53,722 bases of DNA from Selenomonas ruminantium. GTDB lineage: Bacteria > Bacillota > Negativicutes > Selenomonadales > Selenomonadaceae. The position numbers were made by a program, and so were the translations under genes. The DNA lies in NCBI GenBank assembly GCA_902785885.1, contig CADAAS010000002.1, forward strand, positions 1 through 53,722. The letters run 5' to 3'. Below the pieces are notes generated by a model. The model searched no databases and was not told the origin of the DNA. It worked only from the letters and a program-made list of their open reading frames with translations. Shown here one piece after another: positions 36,727 to 45,497 of this stretch; positions within the stretch are counted from its first letter, which is position 1, and the number at the start of each line of letters is the position of its first letter.

Positions 36727-36901
36727 AAATCAGAACCTCTCTAAAATCATAATCTTTATTTGCATAATTATAACGCCGCAGTTCCTGTTTTGCTATAGGA
36801 AAAATAGGAGCAACGGATTTTATGTGGATGAAGGAAACATTCTTGATTTTTCTGTACATCAACAGTAGGATGTGCTAAAATTAAAAAAAAATTAAAATTT
36901 A

Positions 36902-36928
36902 GCAGGAGATTACAGGGGGGCGTAGAAT
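36902..36928 (+). promoter_or_regulatory. sigH-like promoter upstream of exported-protein cluster
   Basis: GCAGGAGAT-N14-GAAT matches the Bacillus sigma-H consensus; similar motifs at 17293, 27506, 30357, 52843. Confidence 0.5.
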
Positions 36929-36991
36929 TCTATCCTCATGGTGAAATTTATTCACATGCTAGAGTTTTAGAGTTTTATGGAGGGATGATCT

Positions 36992-37780
36992 ATGAAGAAG
37001 AAAAATCTGCTGGCAGCTGTGGGAATGGCTGGTGTATTCGCAGTATCAGGCGCTTTTATGCCGGGTGTTACTGGGCATGGCTTCATTGGGGCATCTGTGG
37101 CAGAGGCTGGCTTTGGCTTAGGTGATATTGGTGGTGCTGTCAAGGGAGAGGCAAAGAAAGCTGCTGCCAAGGCCTTTCATGTGGATCTTGATGGCATGCA
37201 GGATAAGCGCCAGAATATGATGTTGAATCTTTATAGGGCTGCTGTTTGTTATGGGTACGCTTCGGCAAATGTGCAGCAGGCGCTAGGCCTGGGGGATGGC
37301 GGCGCGAAAGCAAAAGCTGCGATTAAACAGGCTGCAAGCAGCAAGACCAATTTGGGCTCCATCACATCTGTAGTTGATTCCTCGAAAGTTGATGCTAAGC
37401 TGATTGAAGGAGCTGCAAAAAAATTGCTGGATAGTGGTGATGCTGCCAAGATTCAGCAGGCCAATGGATTGTTGCAGACAGCTAAAACGCAGCGTAAAGC
37501 AGCCAATATTTATAAAATCCTAGCTGCACGTGATGCAGTGTCGATTGTCAAGGATGCTGGCACAGCAATGGCAAAAGGTGGCGACAGTATTCAGGATAAA
37601 ATGGATATTATAAAGGATTTGTCTTCTGTGGCTAAAAATGCCGAGTCATTGACGAAGGTTATTGGAGCACAACATAAAGGCATGTCTGGGGCATTAAAGA
37701 CATACGAGAAAAAACAAAATATTAATGATGTTAGTGATGAGCAAGCAAAAAAGGAAGCATCTAGCTGGACTGAGGGTTGA
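36992..37780 (+). CDS. Exported Ala/Lys-rich helical hypothetical protein
   Basis: GGAGG RBS; long signal peptide ending AEA-G; no recognisable family. Confidence 0.8.
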   Translation: MKKKNLLAAVGMAGVFAVSGAFMPGVTGHGFIGASVAEAGFGLGDIGGAVKGEAKKAAAKAFHVDLDGMQDKRQNMMLNLYRAAVCYGYASANVQQALGLGDGGAKAKAAIKQAASSKTNLGSITSVVDSSKVDAKLIEGAAKKLLDSGDAAKIQQANGLLQTAKTQRKAANIYKILAARDAVSIVKDAGTAMAKGGDSIQDKMDIIKDLSSVAKNAESLTKVIGAQHKGMSGALKTYEKKQNINDVSDEQAKKEASSWTEG

Positions 37781-37802
37781 TTGAATAAATGCCGTGAGTC
37801 GG

Positions 37803-37836
37803 CAAGGAGCGGCATTAGTCGCTCCTTGTTTGTTTT
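37803..37836 (+). terminator. Internal terminator after first cluster gene
   Basis: CAAGGAGCGGC-ATTA-GTCGCTCCTTG-TTTGTTTT. Confidence 0.75.
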
Positions 37837-37852
37837 ATGGGAGGTGGAGAGT

Positions 37853-39076
37853 GTGTCGCAAATTAATAGAGGGCTAAAAAGGGTAATAGTGGGGGCATTC
37901 ACTATTATGTCATTGGCTGCTATTTTTACCATGTCTGTTTTGGAAGCGGCAGAAAAGCCGGAGGTCCTTTGTGCTGACGAAGTATTGGTTGTCAATAAGG
38001 GAACGAATCGTTTGTTTTTGCTAGGCAATACGCGCAAACGGATACAGGAAGCTATAACGGCTAAAATCGCAAGTGAAGAAATGGCAGGCTCATTGCCCTT
38101 TAAGGTAAAACAAGCTGGAAGCTATGAATATGAAGGCGTAATGACTGATGTGGATGCTCAAGTGCCAGTGGCACTTATACCATTGTCGATAATTTCGGAT
38201 ACGTTGGATTCAAGTTATCAGCTAAAGGACAAAACTTTATATAAATCAGTAGTGGTAGGAAGCCTTTACTTGGCAATTTGTCGAGGCGGGAGCACGGCTA
38301 ATAATTGGACTATGGTAGGCGCAATACCGGTTAGTGGCTTTGACCCTGTAAGCTTGGGGGGAGATATAAACAAGCCATGGCTAGTGCAGCCGTCAGATAC
38401 ACAAAAAGCAGATGTTTATGCGACCATGATGGAAAAATTGATACGCGAGAAACTGGACCTTAGCCAGTTAAAAACCTATTTAAAGAATATTAACCAACCG
38501 ACCAATGATACTTATGAAGTGGTTGATGTGTCTATGAGTGCAAAACGGGCACCGGAGATTTTTGGGAGCCAGCGCGAAACGATAAAAGCGTTGATGGGCA
38601 GTCTTTATAGTGCCAGGTTCCAGGAGACAAGCAAAAAAATAGTCTATCCGCCGATTACTATGATGGGACAGAAAGTGGGCAATGCAGATAGGACCAATGA
38701 GGGGAACAAATCTGTAGCTGATGACGTTTCGGATAGTATCTATTCCTTGACTGGTGGCTATTCAACTTCTGGAGCTACGATGACCTTGACTGTACCAGAG
38801 CCTGCACATAAAATCAGGCTTAATTTTTCGGGGGCAGTTTGGAAGGAGTTGCCAAGCAAGAAAGAATCCCTAGCTGTAAAAAATATGGGATATAAAGCAT
38901 GGCTTAGAAGCCAGGTTGATGGCCAGGCAGAAAAAGTGGCTGATGATGTAAAAGCGGTACAATATATTTTGCCAGAATCGGGGTCTATTGCGGCGGCAGA
39001 GAAGGAACAGCTGCCGGATATTTATACGGAACTATTGATAAGGCTGGCAGATAGATTGGCCACACAGAAAAAGTAA
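37853..39076 (+). CDS. Exported hypothetical protein
   Basis: GTG 37853 after GGAGGT; signal peptide ending LEA-A. Confidence 0.75.
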   Translation: MSQINRGLKRVIVGAFTIMSLAAIFTMSVLEAAEKPEVLCADEVLVVNKGTNRLFLLGNTRKRIQEAITAKIASEEMAGSLPFKVKQAGSYEYEGVMTDVDAQVPVALIPLSIISDTLDSSYQLKDKTLYKSVVVGSLYLAICRGGSTANNWTMVGAIPVSGFDPVSLGGDINKPWLVQPSDTQKADVYATMMEKLIREKLDLSQLKTYLKNINQPTNDTYEVVDVSMSAKRAPEIFGSQRETIKALMGSLYSARFQETSKKIVYPPITMMGQKVGNADRTNEGNKSVADDVSDSIYSLTGGYSTSGATMTLTVPEPAHKIRLNFSGAVWKELPSKKESLAVKNMGYKAWLRSQVDGQAEKVADDVKAVQYILPESGSIAAAEKEQLPDIYTELLIRLADRLATQKK

Positions 39077-39096
39077 CGATATCAAGGAGTGACAGG

Positions 39097-40284
39097 ATGA
39101 CGCGGAAAAGGATTATGGCAGGAGTTTTGGCTATGCTGCTGTCGGGGGGATTTTTTTGTCAAAGTCCTGCAGCAGAAGCGGCGATTGTACGTGGGAGTGC
39201 TGCCATTGTAAATGGCGATATAGCCAAGGCAAGACGAGAAGCCAAAGAGGATGCAATGAGAACCTGCATAGAACAGGAAGTTGGGACCCATGTAAAAAGC
39301 AGTACGGAAACAAGTATGGGCATGCTGGTAAGTGATCGCATTATGGCTGAAGCTGATGGCTATGTTATGGCTAAGGGGCAGCCTCGCGAGTGGCAGGAAG
39401 GTGGCCTGTTCTTTGTTGAATTGGATCTTGTTGCTAGTGCACAGAAAATAGGAGTTGCAGTAGAGGATGTCAAATCCCAGTTGCAAAACGCGCTTAATGC
39501 GGATACCACAGGGCGGTCACATGTAGTTGTGGCTGTTAGTGGCCGAAATGCTGAAGGTCATTTGGAAAATAACAACATGACCAATATCATCAGTACTTAT
39601 GTGGCCCAGGCCTTGTCGACACAAGGCTTTACTACGCATGATACGGATGCGGTGGCTGCTTATATTGCCCGGCAGGATTTTGATGATCCGATTGCTCGGG
39701 CAAATGCCAGAAAAGAAGTTCGCAATGAAATGCCTGATGTGAATGCTATTTTACGAGGGTCTTTGTCAACTGTTAAAGTGGAACACGTTGGTGGCAATTG
39801 GGCAGCGACCGTTAGTGCGGCGTTTCAGTTGGTAGGGATTGTGTCATCAGAAACAAATTCTTTCTCGGAATATTTCACTGCAGTGGACACTGACAGGGAA
39901 ATGGCCATAAAAAAGGCACAAGAAAGAGCTACACAAAAAGCTATAGCACATATAGGCTCAAGAGCGGCGGAAACAATGCAGGGGGAAACTAAAGGCGGTG
40001 TGCTGCACCTAAAAATTGCCGTTCATATCAGCGGCGTAGTTGATAGGACAGGCCAGGGAAAGGCTATTTTGGCTGGCTTGCAAAATTCTGGCTGCCGTGT
40101 TATTCGTTCCATGTATGATAAAAAAGACCCCACAACGTTGAAGGTTTTTGTGGATGCTAGTTCGGTTGGGTCCTTGCAGGAACTAATTGATAAAATACAG
40201 GGACAGTTGCCCATGCTAGAAGAAGGGGACAATGATACAGATGCAGCTGGTGCACAAAAGTTATACTTCCGTTTGCGTCGTTAA
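39097..40284 (+). CDS. Exported protein with flagellar assembly protein T (FlgT) N-terminal-like domain, TolB-N/CsgG-like middle domain
   Basis: Signal peptide AEA-A; VRGSAAIVNGDIAKARREAKEDAMRTCIEQEVGTHVKSST pattern. Confidence 0.7.
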   Translation: MTRKRIMAGVLAMLLSGGFFCQSPAAEAAIVRGSAAIVNGDIAKARREAKEDAMRTCIEQEVGTHVKSSTETSMGMLVSDRIMAEADGYVMAKGQPREWQEGGLFFVELDLVASAQKIGVAVEDVKSQLQNALNADTTGRSHVVVAVSGRNAEGHLENNNMTNIISTYVAQALSTQGFTTHDTDAVAAYIARQDFDDPIARANARKEVRNEMPDVNAILRGSLSTVKVEHVGGNWAATVSAAFQLVGIVSSETNSFSEYFTAVDTDREMAIKKAQERATQKAIAHIGSRAAETMQGETKGGVLHLKIAVHISGVVDRTGQGKAILAGLQNSGCRVIRSMYDKKDPTTLKVFVDASSVGSLQELIDKIQGQLPMLEEGDNDTDAAGAQKLYFRLRR

Positions 40285-40297
40285 GAGGGGGATGACC

Positions 40298-41155
40298 ATG
40301 TGCAGAATATTGGCGTTAATATCATTGATGATAGCTTTGTTCTCCAGTACAGTTTTTGCGAAACCCATGGACATTATGGCCGTGGGGTTCGATAAAGCTG
40401 GCAACGAGAATATGGCGATAGAAAGGATGTGTATGGCAGCGGTTGGGCACAGCCTGGCTTTTATCATACCGCCTAGCCAGGATCCAGGCAGTGACTTTGT
40501 TCGTTTGATAAAAAATCATTACAAGGAAGTGACCTCTAATCCACAGGTTAAGAACAAAAAAAATGGTCCCCCCTTGGTTGTTACAGGATATGTAACCGTG
40601 GATTTTGATCGTTTAAAGTCTATTGTCAGAACTGAGATAAAGGGGGTACAGAATGATAATACGGATGCAGCTGCATGTTTTTTGATTAGGGTTAAGGGGA
40701 TTGATAATCCTCAGCAACTACGCCATGCATATGGTGACATTATTCAGACATACAGTGCAGTTTTTGAAAATCTTGGCTTCAAGGTGAAAGCTGGAGAGGA
40801 AGTTACGCCAGAGGTACTTAAGGCATCATCGGAAGAATCTTTTGATGACTATTGCCGCAGGGTAAGTGAAGCTGCAAAGGAGGATGTGGAGATAACTTAT
40901 GCCATTGTTGGAGAGATTTCTGTGGAAAAGTTGGCTGAGTCACCTGCGGGAATAACCTGGGGGAGCAGTGCGCATTTACAAGCACGGGACTTTACGACTG
41001 GCGGGGACAAGATTATCTTTGATTTTGGCGATGATTATAAGTTGAAGGGGCGAGGCGAGTTAATTGGCTTTTTTGCCATGCGTAAAGCTGCCATGAATTC
41101 ATCTCGTGCTTTGGCGGAACATACATTGGCCTATTGGAAGTCAATGCGAAGATGA
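40298..41155 (+). CDS. Exported hypothetical protein, possible distant paralogue of the FlgT-N-like protein
   Basis: GAGGGG RBS; signal peptide VFA-K; FENLGFKV...YAIVGEI...LQARDFTTG pattern. Confidence 0.7.
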   Translation: MCRILALISLMIALFSSTVFAKPMDIMAVGFDKAGNENMAIERMCMAAVGHSLAFIIPPSQDPGSDFVRLIKNHYKEVTSNPQVKNKKNGPPLVVTGYVTVDFDRLKSIVRTEIKGVQNDNTDAAACFLIRVKGIDNPQQLRHAYGDIIQTYSAVFENLGFKVKAGEEVTPEVLKASSEESFDDYCRRVSEAAKEDVEITYAIVGEISVEKLAESPAGITWGSSAHLQARDFTTGGDKIIFDFGDDYKLKGRGELIGFFAMRKAAMNSSRALAEHTLAYWKSMRR

Positions 41156-41177
41156 TGTAGAAAGGGTTGTGTAAATC

Positions 41178-42011
41178 ATGTTTTTGCAATTTGGTCGTAT
41201 TTTGGGTGCGGTTTTAGCGGTATTGGCATTGAATGTTATGCCTGTTTTTGCCGCAGAAGGAAATGTGGACTGGGATAGTCGCGTTATTACAGTAACTGGT
41301 ATGGGGGCGGCACCGACTAACGTCGTGAATCCAGCACAGGCAAGGATGATGGCTCGCCGTGCGGCCGTGGTAGATGGCTATCGTCAATTGGCTGAAGCGG
41401 TCAAGGGCGTTAACGTAGATTCAGAGACTACGGTTGAAAATATGATGGTGACCAGTGATGTGATAAAAACTAAGGTTTCGGGGTTGATTCAAGGTGCATC
41501 GGTAGTAGCGGAACAGGTGATTCCTGGTGGCGGTTACGAGGTTACTATGCAGATGCCGATGTTCGGTGGCAACAATTCTTTGGCCAGTGCAGTAATGCCG
41601 GCGGCGCAGGCTGCCCCTGAGGCTTTTCCGGCACCGGCTTCCAATGGGTCATCTGCAGCTGATGCACCCGCTGGACATGCGGAAGGTGTTTATACTGGCT
41701 TAGTTGTTGATTGTCGTGGCTTGGGCTTGAAGCCAATTATGAGCCCGGTTATCAAGAATGAACAGGGCAGCCCGATATACGGTTTTAAGAATCTTGATTA
41801 TGATAAGGTGATTCAATACGGGATGGCTAGCTACAGCAATGATCCTGCCAATGTTGCAAGAGCTGGCGCGCATCCATTGGTCGTTAAGGCTGTAAGGGTG
41901 GAGAACCATAATGGTTATCCCGTGATTAGCTTGTCTGATGCCAATAAAGTCCTGATTGAAAATGGGGCAACGCATTTTTTGGATGCCACTTGTGTAGTAT
42001 TTATCAGATAA
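41178..42011 (+). CDS. LPP20-like exported protein (paralogue 1)
   Basis: VDWDSRVITVTGMG, ARRAAVVDGYRQLAEAVKGV, TGLVVDCRG; signal peptide without lipobox Cys. Confidence 0.75.
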   Translation: MFLQFGRILGAVLAVLALNVMPVFAAEGNVDWDSRVITVTGMGAAPTNVVNPAQARMMARRAAVVDGYRQLAEAVKGVNVDSETTVENMMVTSDVIKTKVSGLIQGASVVAEQVIPGGGYEVTMQMPMFGGNNSLASAVMPAAQAAPEAFPAPASNGSSAADAPAGHAEGVYTGLVVDCRGLGLKPIMSPVIKNEQGSPIYGFKNLDYDKVIQYGMASYSNDPANVARAGAHPLVVKAVRVENHNGYPVISLSDANKVLIENGATHFLDATCVVFIR

Positions 42012-42023
42012 GGAGGCTTAGCC

Positions 42024-42803
42024 ATGAATTTAAAAGCATGCGCAGGCGGGGTGATGATAGGCCTTTGGCTGGGAACCTTTGCCCCGAACCTGGCTATTGC
42101 AGAAATGGCTCCTTATGCAGATAAGGGGAATAGCTTGCAGCAGCCGCATGGTCGTATATTCTATCTTTATCGCAAGGTACAAAATGTGAATACAGAGGAG
42201 CACAAAAACAAGGCAAGGCAGTTAATCATGACAGGGCAGGATTATTCTCTGGCTTTGGCAGAGCTCAATTTGGTTATCGACCTGGATAAGGAAGATGCAG
42301 AAGCGTTTCTTTTAAGAGGCTTGGCCTATACAGAAATGGACAAATTTGAGGAAGCTGAAGCTGATTATAAGGCAGCCCTTATGCTGGAGCCAGAAAATCC
42401 CACGTTTTATTATTTTCGTGGACAGAATTTTCTCCTTTGGCCAAGTTCAGGAAGTACCACGGGCACAAATTTTACAGGCCAGTACGATTGGGTCTCCACG
42501 CACAAGGTACAGGCATTGGAAATGTTCCAAAAGGCCTTGGAAATTGAGCCGGGGTATATTGATGCCATTGTAGGCATCGGCGACGTTTGTTATACAATAG
42601 GGACCAAGAAGCAAGAAATGTTGCGTGGCAAGGAGCCATGGCTTGGAAAGGCAATTGACCAATACAATAAGGTCCTGGTATTGTTTGGCAATAATGATGT
42701 GATAAAGGCTAAAAAGGAACTTGCCGAGCAAACGCTTAGGGCAGGGCAAGAAGCTGAGCAGGAGAGAAAGAGGAAGGAGGAAATCAGGAGTAGAATAGGG
42801 TAA
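42024..42803 (+). CDS. Exported tetratricopeptide-repeat protein
   Basis: AEAFLLRGLAYTEMDKFEEAEADYKAALMLEP, ALEMFQKALEIEP; signal peptide AIA-E. Confidence 0.85.
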   Translation: MNLKACAGGVMIGLWLGTFAPNLAIAEMAPYADKGNSLQQPHGRIFYLYRKVQNVNTEEHKNKARQLIMTGQDYSLALAELNLVIDLDKEDAEAFLLRGLAYTEMDKFEEAEADYKAALMLEPENPTFYYFRGQNFLLWPSSGSTTGTNFTGQYDWVSTHKVQALEMFQKALEIEPGYIDAIVGIGDVCYTIGTKKQEMLRGKEPWLGKAIDQYNKVLVLFGNNDVIKAKKELAEQTLRAGQEAEQERKRKEEIRSRIG

Positions 42804-42854
42804 AGGCATAAGTGCTTGATAGTAGGAGAGTTTGCTAGTAGGAGGATGTAGAAG

Positions 42855-43829
42855 ATGAAAAAAATGTCAATAATCAGGTATCTATTGTTAATGATAGTGG
42901 CCGTAATGCTGGTATTGCCAGGAAGTATTGTCAAGGCATCTGGGGTTGACTGGAATGATGCCAAGATTAGGGTCCAAGGCATGGGAATTGCACCAGCCAG
43001 GGCAATGAATCCTGCGCAGGCAAGAATGATGGCTCGGCGTGCGGCTGTGGTAGATGGTTACAGGCAATTAGCAGAGGCTGTGCAAGGGGTAAATGTAGAT
43101 GCGGAAACCACAGTAGAAAACATGATGGTAACCAGTGATGTTATAAAAACCAAGGTCAATGCGATGATTAAGGGCGCCAGGGTAGTAGCGGAAGGTGTTA
43201 CGCCTGATGGTGGTTACCAGGTTACTATGGAAGTATCCATGTTTGGTGTATCAAACTCTGTGGCACAGGCTGTTATGCCGAAACCCGCTGCTGTTGAAGC
43301 TTTTCCTGCTCCGGTAGCATCAGTAGCTCCGGCGGTTCCGTCCGTAAGCGTTAGCGTGAATGTCAATACGAGCGTAACACCGGCGTCCAATCTGCCGGCA
43401 AATCCATCTATCCCGGCAGTTACGGTACCTGCAACTCCGGTTAGCCCGGCGCCGGCACCACAGGCACCTACTCAGCCTGCAGTTAGCAATGCTGGGGCCA
43501 TTGGTGGATTTACTGGATTGGTAGTTGATTGCCGTGGCTTGGGGCTGAAACCTGTTATGAGCCCTGTGATAAAAAATGCTGAGGGCCAGGCTATTTATGG
43601 CTATAAGAACCTTGATTATGATAAAGTGGTTTCTGAGGGCATGGCGGCATATACAACCAGCCCGGACAAGATTTCGCGTGCTGGCAGCAATCCGCTGGTA
43701 GTGAAAGCTGTTTCGTTGGATAACCACAATGGCAACCCTGTCATTTCTGTAGCAGATGCAAATCGTGTATTAATGGAAAACGGCAAAACAGCTTTCCTGG
43801 ATAACTTAAAAGTTGTGTTCCTGCGCTGA
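42855..43829 (+). CDS. LPP20-like exported protein (paralogue 2) with long Pro/Ala/Val linker
   Basis: Long identical blocks with 41178-42011 (NPAQARMMARRAAVVDGYRQLAEAV, ETTVENMMVTSDVIKTKV, TGLVVDCRGLGLKP). Confidence 0.75.
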   Translation: MKKMSIIRYLLLMIVAVMLVLPGSIVKASGVDWNDAKIRVQGMGIAPARAMNPAQARMMARRAAVVDGYRQLAEAVQGVNVDAETTVENMMVTSDVIKTKVNAMIKGARVVAEGVTPDGGYQVTMEVSMFGVSNSVAQAVMPKPAAVEAFPAPVASVAPAVPSVSVSVNVNTSVTPASNLPANPSIPAVTVPATPVSPAPAPQAPTQPAVSNAGAIGGFTGLVVDCRGLGLKPVMSPVIKNAEGQAIYGYKNLDYDKVVSEGMAAYTTSPDKISRAGSNPLVVKAVSLDNHNGNPVISVADANRVLMENGKTAFLDNLKVVFLR

Positions 43830-43851
43830 TTAGGCAAAACATAGCAATAGA

Positions 43852-43886
43852 GATAACGCCCATCATTTCGTTAGATGGGCGTTATC
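43852..43886 (+). terminator. Stem-loop after second LPP20-like gene
   Basis: GATAACGCCCATC-loop-GATGGGCGTTATC; weak T-tail. Confidence 0.6.
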
Positions 43887-43911
43887 ATTATTCGTTTATG
43901 GAGGTGGAACT

Positions 43912-44625
43912 ATGAACATTTTTAAAATGCTTATAGTGGTTATGGCGTGCCTGTGTATGGGGATGGGGTGTGTCCTGGGAGCAGCAAATGATAAGCTGGC
44001 AGGAGAATATGATCGCAAGACTGGGACAAACTGGTATTTCCCGGGGTTGAAGGTAACTTATGAAGTTAGTGATAATCAAGTGGCGGAGATTATACAGGAC
44101 AAAAAGGGACAGTACATTGTACGCTTTATTGGGGCCGGCGATGTATATGTACAGGCAACATTTTATTCGCAAGGAAAGCCATTGCCTCCGGAAACATATT
44201 TGTTTCATATAACGGGGGATAAAAAGGGTGAAGATGCCACGGATTGGGGAACCTTTGCCATGGATATTTTGCGCCTTACTAATGAAGAACGTAAAAAGGC
44301 AGGATTGTCGCAATTAAAGGCAGACTTTGCCTTGTCGGAGGCAGCGGCCATTCGTGCTGAAGAGGCTGTGCAGTTATATTCACATACTCGTCCTGATGGA
44401 AGCCCGTATAATACTGTGTTGAAAGGCATAAATTATCGGCAAGCTGGAGAGAATTTGCAGGCAGGGGCGGCTACTCCCAAGGACGCGATATACCAATGGA
44501 TGAATTCGCCAACGCATAGGGAAAATATACTTTATCCAGATTATAATTCCTTGGGGGTAGGGTATATTTATGTACCAAATAGCAAGTATCATCATTATTG
44601 GGTGCAAATTTTTTTACAAAAATAG
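43912..44625 (+). CDS. Exported CAP (SCP/Tpx-1/Ag5) domain protein with Ig-like N-domain
   Basis: NEERKKAGL, SHTRPDG, AGENL, WMNSPTHRENIL, YWVQIF. Confidence 0.9.
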   Translation: MNIFKMLIVVMACLCMGMGCVLGAANDKLAGEYDRKTGTNWYFPGLKVTYEVSDNQVAEIIQDKKGQYIVRFIGAGDVYVQATFYSQGKPLPPETYLFHITGDKKGEDATDWGTFAMDILRLTNEERKKAGLSQLKADFALSEAAAIRAEEAVQLYSHTRPDGSPYNTVLKGINYRQAGENLQAGAATPKDAIYQWMNSPTHRENILYPDYNSLGVGYIYVPNSKYHHYWVQIFLQK

Positions 44626-44634
44626 GAGGCTGTT

Positions 44635-45396
44635 ATGTGTAAGTGCTTGGTTTCATTATGCATTTGCTTGTTGTTATCTACCTATGCATCGGCAGAGACT
44701 ATAGTCAGGCATGAGCATTCGGCAAGGAGGGCAGCATCAAGTGAACCAACAACATCTGCTGAAGTTGTTGGTTCGTATTCGCCTGTTGAAGTTGTTGATT
44801 CGTCTGCTGGGGAGAGGGATGCTGATGACGTGTTGGTGGTGTATGGTCCTTTAAAGGAGCCTGCACTTGATGTTCCGGAAAATAATGGAGTTGTGGCGGG
44901 AGAAGAGATAGGGGAAAATCGTGTAGACAAATTCCTCGGGGATTATAGCGGCAAAGATAATCCTGGCTTGAGGAGAGGCAAGGACAATGGGGTTGATTAT
45001 GTTGATAGTATTTATTTGCTAGGCACAGATGCTGGCAGGGAGGATTATGTTATAGCCCTTCGTAAACAGCTAGAACATGAAAAAAGGCAAGCGACTTATG
45101 TCTCGTTTATTATGCTCATGGGGCGTGGGGCAAAAGATGGCGTGGTATTTGAAACAGATAAGCTGCCCCAGCTGGAGTTGTTGAATAATGGCGTGGAAAA
45201 AATAGTTTCATTTGAACATGCCTGGGTTAAGCAGCCATGGGGGTTTATGTTAAGAATGAATTCAGAAATAATGACAGAAACGCTAAATGCAGATATGGTT
45301 AACCTTTTGTTTGGCACATCGGTGGGAACGAAGAAAATACTTATTCCGAAGCCAGTTATAGATCAGTGGAAAGTGGTTGGCAATTTACAGAAATAG
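44635..45396 (+). CDS. Exported hypothetical protein
   Basis: AGGAGG RBS; signal peptide ASA-E. Confidence 0.72.
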   Translation: MCKCLVSLCICLLLSTYASAETIVRHEHSARRAASSEPTTSAEVVGSYSPVEVVDSSAGERDADDVLVVYGPLKEPALDVPENNGVVAGEEIGENRVDKFLGDYSGKDNPGLRRGKDNGVDYVDSIYLLGTDAGREDYVIALRKQLEHEKRQATYVSFIMLMGRGAKDGVVFETDKLPQLELLNNGVEKIVSFEHAWVKQPWGFMLRMNSEIMTETLNADMVNLLFGTSVGTKKILIPKPVIDQWKVVGNLQK

Positions 45397-45497
45397 TATC
45401 ATCCGATACGGATCGCAAGTGAATTAGTACCTGCTTTCAAGACATGCGTATCCTTTTCTGCTATAATGGGGTGTGGTTTTTATGAAAGGATGACAAT

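Follow-up and report, generated by a model that had tools for sequence, protein, structure and literature searches.

A flagellum-independent cluster of FlgT- and FlgP-like exported-type proteins in Selenomonas ruminantium, a candidate scaffold under the outer membrane

What are relatives of FlgT and FlgP, known from the H-ring of Vibrio and the basal disk of Campylobacter, doing in a run of exported-type proteins with no flagellar-operon family among them? The question is raised by nine consecutive open reading frames on the plus strand (genes 1 to 9; Table 1), which fill positions 36992-45396 of a 53,722-nucleotide stretch of Selenomonas ruminantium DNA (contig CADAAS010000002.1; hereafter the window). 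A first-pass annotation had proposed that they encode an undescribed envelope machine of diderm Firmicutes, such as a disc reinforcing the flagellar motor. We find that a core of five genes is kept in relatives without detectable flagellar genes, so that it likely encodes a scaffold under the outer membrane and not a part of the motor. The nearest named locus (L001) belongs to a Selenomonas ruminantium metagenome-assembled genome, with proteins 95-100% identical, and the genome hosting the window has FlhA and FlgI, both on other contigs.

The genes are tightly spaced, as first annotated: with the starts of genes 2 and 4 corrected to what are most likely GTG 37853 and ATG 40298, each behind a motif resembling a ribosome-binding site, the intergenic gaps measure 9-82 bases. 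All nine proteins are hydrophobic near the N-terminus (the best 19 residues average 1.4-2.4 on the Kyte-Doolittle scale, a heuristic and not the call of a signal-peptide predictor), and none has a later stretch above 1.5 that would resemble a membrane span. In line with the earlier statement, none of the nine matched a Pfam or NCBIfam family of ATPases, channels, enzymes or flagellar operons. In Pfam, gene 3 gave a weak FlgT_N match; genes 5 and 7 matched LPP20, gene 6 TPR and gene 8 CAP, and genes 1, 2, 4 and 9 no family. NCBIfam matches to LipL46, MamA and MagA lay far under their cut-offs and were set aside.

The conserved unit is a core of genes 1-5, with genes 6, 8 and 9 as accessories. 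Across a sample of 301 Negativicutes genomes, host included, the gene-3 profile gave some match in 103 and a near-full-length match in only 14 (again with the host), the latter at E 1e-56 or better and the next best at 3e-20. Gene 2 was found in exactly the same 14 genomes. Genes 2, 3 and 4 keep this order in all but G022 and G004, whose gene 2 is set apart; gene 3 is frameshifted in G224, and the adjacency of genes 1-4 persists across four families at identities of 16-30%. A wider gene-1 profile did not match the genes at the position of gene 1 in G284, G098 and G224, and we do not treat these as gene 1. A search with gene 7 found 64 loci, whose neighbours were counted within the fetched DNA: a gene-3 relative is present in 13, genes 2 and 4 in 11 and gene 1 in nine, and the remaining loci hold an LPP20 gene without other cluster genes. 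Relatives of the TPR gene 6 occur in five of the 64, those of the CAP gene 8 in six and those of gene 9 in two. The notion of one conserved unit is supported for the core and not for the TPR, CAP and gene 9 proteins. The idea of loose exported cargo without a common function is partly true of genes 6, 8 and 9, whose presence and order differ between loci, and gene 7 relatives in Selenomonas and Mitsuokella are mostly solitary. As an account of the whole island this is hardly credible, given the shared distribution of genes 2 and 3 and the persistent adjacency of genes 1-4 at such low identity.

The core is independent of flagella. FlhA is present in 142 of the Negativicutes genomes, and the core is absent from 134 of these, as it is from the close flagellated relative G040. 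Of the 14 genomes with the core, eight have FlhA. Five others lack it together with at least one further flagellar marker: G046, G192 and G285 are without FlhA, flagellin and FlgI, G022 without FlhA and flagellin, and G004 without FlhA and FlgI. These five genomes are 92-99% complete, FlhA was found in 0/15, 0/70 and 0/2 genomes of their families, and all five have FlgP-like/D2-like genes and confirmed gene-1 relatives beside the core. A further candidate, G173, has no FlhA but does have flagellin and FlgI, and was dropped. A MotA/ExbB search, which matched four of the five and cannot tell MotA from ExbB/TolQ, was not used. The motor-reinforcing disc of the first-pass annotation fails on the presence of the core in the five genomes and its absence from most FlhA-bearing ones, and we now consider it very improbable. 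It would suit the closest solved relatives of the island proteins, FlgT and FlgP, and a host that has FlhA and FlgI. Helicobacter pylori HP1454 and HP1456 are also reported to interact with FlgP and FapH (PMC11756786), so that a secondary recruitment to the motor is conceivable.

As judged by profiles and predicted models, the island proteins have FlgT-, FlgP- and CsgG-type folds; for the FlgT-N and LPP20/FlgP similarity that had been noticed at first, Pfam, searches of solved structures and Foldseek agree. The gene 3 match to Pfam FlgT_N is below the cut-off (E 6e-5). Its predicted model (pLDDT 69) has FlgT as best Foldseek match (8Z5N, E 4e-8; 3W1E, E 1e-7), and residues 29-295 align to FlgT 26-289 with Z 10.7 and rmsd 6.4 over 210 aligned residues, a Z that PelC and CsgG equal over the middle domain. 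That domain compares with 6LQH at Z 10.7 and rmsd 3.5 over 127 residues, which points to a CsgG-type fold. Gene 3 thus resembles the FlgT of the Vibrio H-ring in its N and M domains and may differ from it at the C-terminus: the alignment ends at FlgT residue 289, Pfam FlgT_C gave no match, and the 90 C-terminal residues are modelled as an alpha/beta domain of their own. The hairpin insert shows as two strands, at low pLDDT.

Genes 5 and 7, which are 63% identical, both exceed the cut-off of Pfam LPP20 (PF02169; 29.6 and 28.0 bits against 25.9). A profile built from 22 sequences and searched against solved structures matched 9HMF chain C (E 5e-24), an entry labelled 'Lipoprotein, putative' that we take to be Campylobacter FlgP, along with FlgP in 8Z5N (E 3e-11) and 9YDS (E 2e-7). 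The insert between the SHS2 helix and the second strand is kept, without gaps against either 9HMF chain C or FlgP of 8Z5N, and gene 3 keeps this segment ungapped against 9HMF chain C. In the FlgP/SHS2 family, ring oligomerisation correlates with the insert after this helix (PMC12222027). Genes 5 and 7 thereby share with FlgP an SHS2 domain with the ring-linked insert. Compared with the H-ring and the basal disk, they differ in an added domain: profile positions 165-283 match residues 130-261 of Treponema pallidum Tp0624 (5JIR, E 1.3e-9), its D2 region. For Tp0624, an exported protein of the treponemal envelope, no function is known (PMC5104382). Here its D2-like domain follows a FlgP-like domain, the N-terminal part matching FlgP instead of D1, for which no sequence match was listed; no match to the OmpA-like D3 was found, and nothing follows the D2-like domain in these proteins. 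The island further departs from the H-ring and basal disk in that it is not linked to flagella, a pattern scan finds no lipobox in the nine proteins, and genes 1, 2 and 4 are without counterpart there. Across 24 loci the lipobox pattern matched three of 125 core proteins, none of them conserved. A complex prediction with four copies of the FlgP-like domain of gene 5 scored 0.00 and is evidence neither way.

Gene 4 matches the gene-3 profile (hhalign 97%, E 3e-11; 65% to the LPP20 profile), and its SHS2 hairpin insert appears shortened or replaced. The predicted model of gene 2 (pLDDT 76) reaches Foldseek E 1e-4 to FlgT and LptE; each half matches the CsgG/LptE/HpaA/FlgT-M group at Z about 6-7 (6.5 to CsgG), and long hairpins are predicted in both domains. 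Profiles of genes 2 and 3 show no relationship by hhalign (6%). Together, the structure matches of genes 3 and 2 include TraT, PelC, CsgG, GNA1162 and LpoB-type proteins.

These folds are also what a CsgG-like outer-membrane channel for export or uptake would use, with genes 2-4 as the pore and gene 1, perhaps with the CAP protein and gene 9, as cargo or plug. Like the CsgG curli channel and the PelC ring, genes 2 and 3 and, by paralogy, gene 4 would have the domain fold in question; the folds matched include those of CsgG, PelC and TraT, and the long hairpins predicted in gene 2 would fit a pore. Gene 1 would also fit a cargo: no other core member varies as much (mean column identity about 22%), L040 has three copies of it, and a terminator-like hairpin stands behind it. 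CsgG and PelC use a lipid anchor attached at a lipobox. The island has no such anchor, Pfam CsgG matched none of the nine proteins at E 0.1, no curli, Pel or other polysaccharide export family is among them, and the best full-architecture match of gene 3 is FlgT and not CsgG. We consider the channel unlikely.

The presence of LptE, HpaA, GNA1162 and LpoB among the fold matches may suggest instead periplasmic adaptors that form no ring, regulating cell-wall or outer-membrane enzymes or displaying an adhesin. The model would be the hp1454-hp1457 operon of H. pylori and the cj0089-cj0091 operon of Campylobacter jejuni, non-flagellar sets that combine Lpp20-like, TPR and LpoB-like proteins (PMC11394524). 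Cj0091 affects adherence and colonisation (PMC3100323), and a strain-variable island fits a niche function. The likeness to these operons extends to exported proteins of the Lpp20/SHS2-like, TPR and CsgG/LpoB-clan types (PMC11756786, PMC11394524, PMC3100323). Those operons encode mainly lipoproteins and have an LpoB homologue, whereas the nine proteins of the island gave no LpoB match and no lipobox. Moreover, genes 3, 5 and 7 carry the FlgP/FlgT-type insert, and the matches listed by the profile searches of solved structures with genes 3 and 5/7 include FlgP and neither Lpp20 nor HP1454. On balance such adaptors seem quite unlikely.

Relatives of gene 3 are restricted to genomes with an outer membrane. 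In a sample of 401 Bacillota genomes (threshold E 1e-8), the gene-3 profile matched 28, mostly at the N-terminus. Omp85 was found in 100 of the 401 (in G330 by partial matches only), and these include all 28, against none of the 301 without Omp85; 18 of the 28 lie outside Negativicutes and span ten families, relatives among them not being independent. In eight of nine loci fetched outside Negativicutes, a FlgP-like/D2-like gene lies no more than two genes from the FlgT-like gene, and none of the nine gave a match to gene 1, 2 or 4. Two distant loci, from Calditrichota (L061 and L062), have in order LPP20, a TPR protein (with SLH in L061), a FlgT-like protein and CsgG. The proposed tie to diderm Firmicutes is thus upheld by the Omp85 link within Bacillota, and the related Calditrichota cluster speaks against anything special to them.

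The host genome itself has a second cluster (L108, G000:C77:107-4615) of five exported-type genes: a FlgT_N-like gene, a CsgG gene, a FlgT_M/CsgG-like gene and two without family, a CsgG/LpoB-like gene being included. Genes of this type adjoin the core in L004, L030, L040 and L118. The island would add to this more widespread FlgT/CsgG-type cluster, which the host carries on contig C77. Separately, a lone FlgT-like gene lies at G000:C98:6988-8067, and two minus-strand open reading frames stand at the end of contig C77 (G000:C77:8865-10238). The latter look to us like Bacteroidota genes, and we assume that the contig may be chimeric.

Taken together, it is highly probable that the core belongs to some non-flagellar multi-protein system linked to the outer membrane. 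More specifically, we give about an even chance to a non-lipidated periplasmic ring or arc that lies under the outer membrane, is polymerised through FlgP/FlgT-type hairpins and carries gene 1. The island proteins would be exported by Sec. Like FlgP and FlgT, genes 5/7 and 3 would polymerise side by side through the beta-hairpin of the SHS2 domain, and genes 2 and 4 would join through their CsgG-type domains; gene 4, lacking the hairpin, might cap an arc. Gene 1 would be a tethered or abundant cargo subunit, the TPR protein (gene 6) an adaptor, and the whole would brace the outer membrane and carry the helical gene-1 protein. The cluster would work like an H-ring or basal disk, from which it differs in flagellar linkage and lipidation; its ring formation, assembly, location and function are all inferred.

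Several observations weigh against such a scaffold. The core is missing around most gene 7 relatives, so the gene 7 protein does not need it. The agreement of genes 2 and 3 on 14 genomes was obtained with a gene-2 profile built partly from those genomes (the profiles come largely from the genomes they found), and related genomes are not independent in the counts. The hairpin region of gene 3 has pLDDT <50 and its whole model a pTM of 0.46; the gene 2 Z scores of 6-7 could fall within the range of common arrangements. The CsgG-type fold is also that of LptE and TolB-N, proteins not known as large rings. No SLH domain, beta-barrel or lipid anchor was found among the nine proteins. Finally, deletion of the related H. 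pylori hp1456 is reported to have given no motility or barrier phenotype (PMC11756786), so that a bracing role is without direct support from analogues.

Gene 1 has no Pfam or NCBIfam family, is probably all-helical, and has 85 relatives among 50% representatives. In two natural proteins (P0097 and P0108), found by searching these 85, a gene-1-like domain is fused to an N-terminal SHS2/FlgT-N-like domain that matches the gene-3 profile (E 7e-11 and 1e-11). A gene at G000:C45:15759-16889 has an N-terminal SHS2-like domain 36% identical to that of P0097. Matches of gene 1 in the Atlas are unnamed clusters only (0.92-0.93); none to solved structures fell under E 0.004, and weak helical matches were taken as chance. 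Several loci show further variation around gene 1. In G022 (L099:465-3139) and G004 (L100:6983-10311), gene 1 carries extra N-terminal repeats, and four to five similar exported genes lie upstream of genes 3-4-1; these read like small beta-barrel proteins, the two scanned giving no Pfam match. In G182 (L101:2658-13761), an extended run of genes, all of exported type, comprises the core, three paralogues of gene 1, CsgG-like genes and a carboxypeptidase-regulatory-like gene. Upstream of the core in the non-flagellated G046 (L096:5343-10872) lie two gene-1 relatives and several more genes of exported or zinc-ribbon type. Of the accessory genes, TPR and CAP are fused in L104, and gene 9 has four homologues including its own cluster.

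The whole block is variable among close relatives. In a comparison with 23 further members of the genus (with G690 and L001, possibly the same genome, counted once), G691, G692 and G040 have an empty site at which ubiX adjoins yybS, with about 70 bases in place of the 8.7 kb in the window; yybS of G691 and G692 is 99% identical to the window copy. In G689 it is tauE that adjoins yybS, and G690 carries the whole block at 98% identity. GC content at third codon positions (GC3) is 0.40-0.49 in island genes compared to 0.60-0.68 in six other window genes. Gain and loss are not separable with certainty, and the composition favours acquisition. Alignment of the island junctions revealed no obvious duplication, with no search for repeats or mobility genes beyond it; gene 3 had no plasmid match. 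Genes 5 and 7 were not resolved in an LPP20 tree (quick method, 79 rows), and we claim no donor.

Parts of the stretch were present in 16 RNA runs from seven studies, of which eight were mapped. Their contigs cover parts of genes 1-7, one of them bridging 41022-43862, and in three studies contigs end at 43852-43862, where the hairpin behind gene 7 lies. We treat this as a weak hint of a transcript end, because the contigs come from RNA libraries, the flanks are covered too and there is no DNA run for comparison. Contig cover of genes 8 and 9 is sparse and carries no weight.

Table 1. Genes and other features of the island in the window
Feature	Position	Strand	Description
Island, 8.7 kb	36728..45421		Between ubiX-like and yybS-like genes; empty sites in relatives; GC3 0.40-0.49
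Gene 1 (core)	36992..37780	+	262-residue exported-type protein, probably all-helical, no known family
Hairpin between genes 1 and 2	37801..37830	+	Terminator-like; 13-pair stem, T-rich tail, z -5.2
Gene 2 (core)	37853..39076	+	Two predicted tandem CsgG/LptE/FlgT-M/HpaA-type domains (predicted model and Foldseek)
Gene 3 (core)	39097..40284	+	FlgT-like: predicted SHS2 with beta-hairpin insert, CsgG-type middle, apparently own C-terminal alpha/beta domain
Gene 4 (core)	40298..41155	+	Gene 3 paralogue without C-terminal domain; insert apparently replaced by a shorter segment
Gene 5 (core)	41178..42011	+	FlgP-like LPP20 domain, Pro/Ala linker, Tp0624-D2-like domain; no lipobox
Gene 6 (accessory)	42024..42803	+	Exported-type TPR protein; Pfam TPR
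Gene 7	42855..43829	+	Second FlgP-like/D2-like protein, longer linker than gene 5
Hairpin 3' of gene 7	43852..43886	+	Strong; possible transcript end; z -7.2
Gene 8 (accessory)	43912..44625	+	Exported-type CAP/YkwD-like protein; Pfam CAP E 4e-21
Gene 9 (accessory)	44635..45396	+	Rare exported-type protein, no known family

We found no published description of the cluster, judging by titles and abstract openings in a search that left subscription papers mostly outside its coverage, which agrees with its first reading as a candidate undescribed system. New here are the family of gene 1 and its fusions to SHS2, gene 2 with its tandem domains, and the contrast between close relatives that naturally have or lack the cluster. 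Negativicutes reportedly have neither LolA nor LolB (PMC5007114), and LolA had no match in the host genome (86% complete); this bears on how outer-membrane structures are built. The cluster also touches the question of where the outer rings of high-torque flagellar motors come from. A possible but doubtful wider view is that clusters of FlgT, FlgP and CsgG folds are a widespread but overlooked, motor-independent machine of the outer envelope, from which H-rings and basal disks were co-opted. The island would then be a laterally mobile version free of lipid anchors, polymerising under the outer membrane of bacteria without Lol and exporting or displaying the helical gene-1 family. As a lipid-anchor-free FlgT/FlgP-like cluster that varies among close Selenomonas, it offers a natural comparison for the roles of these folds outside the motor.

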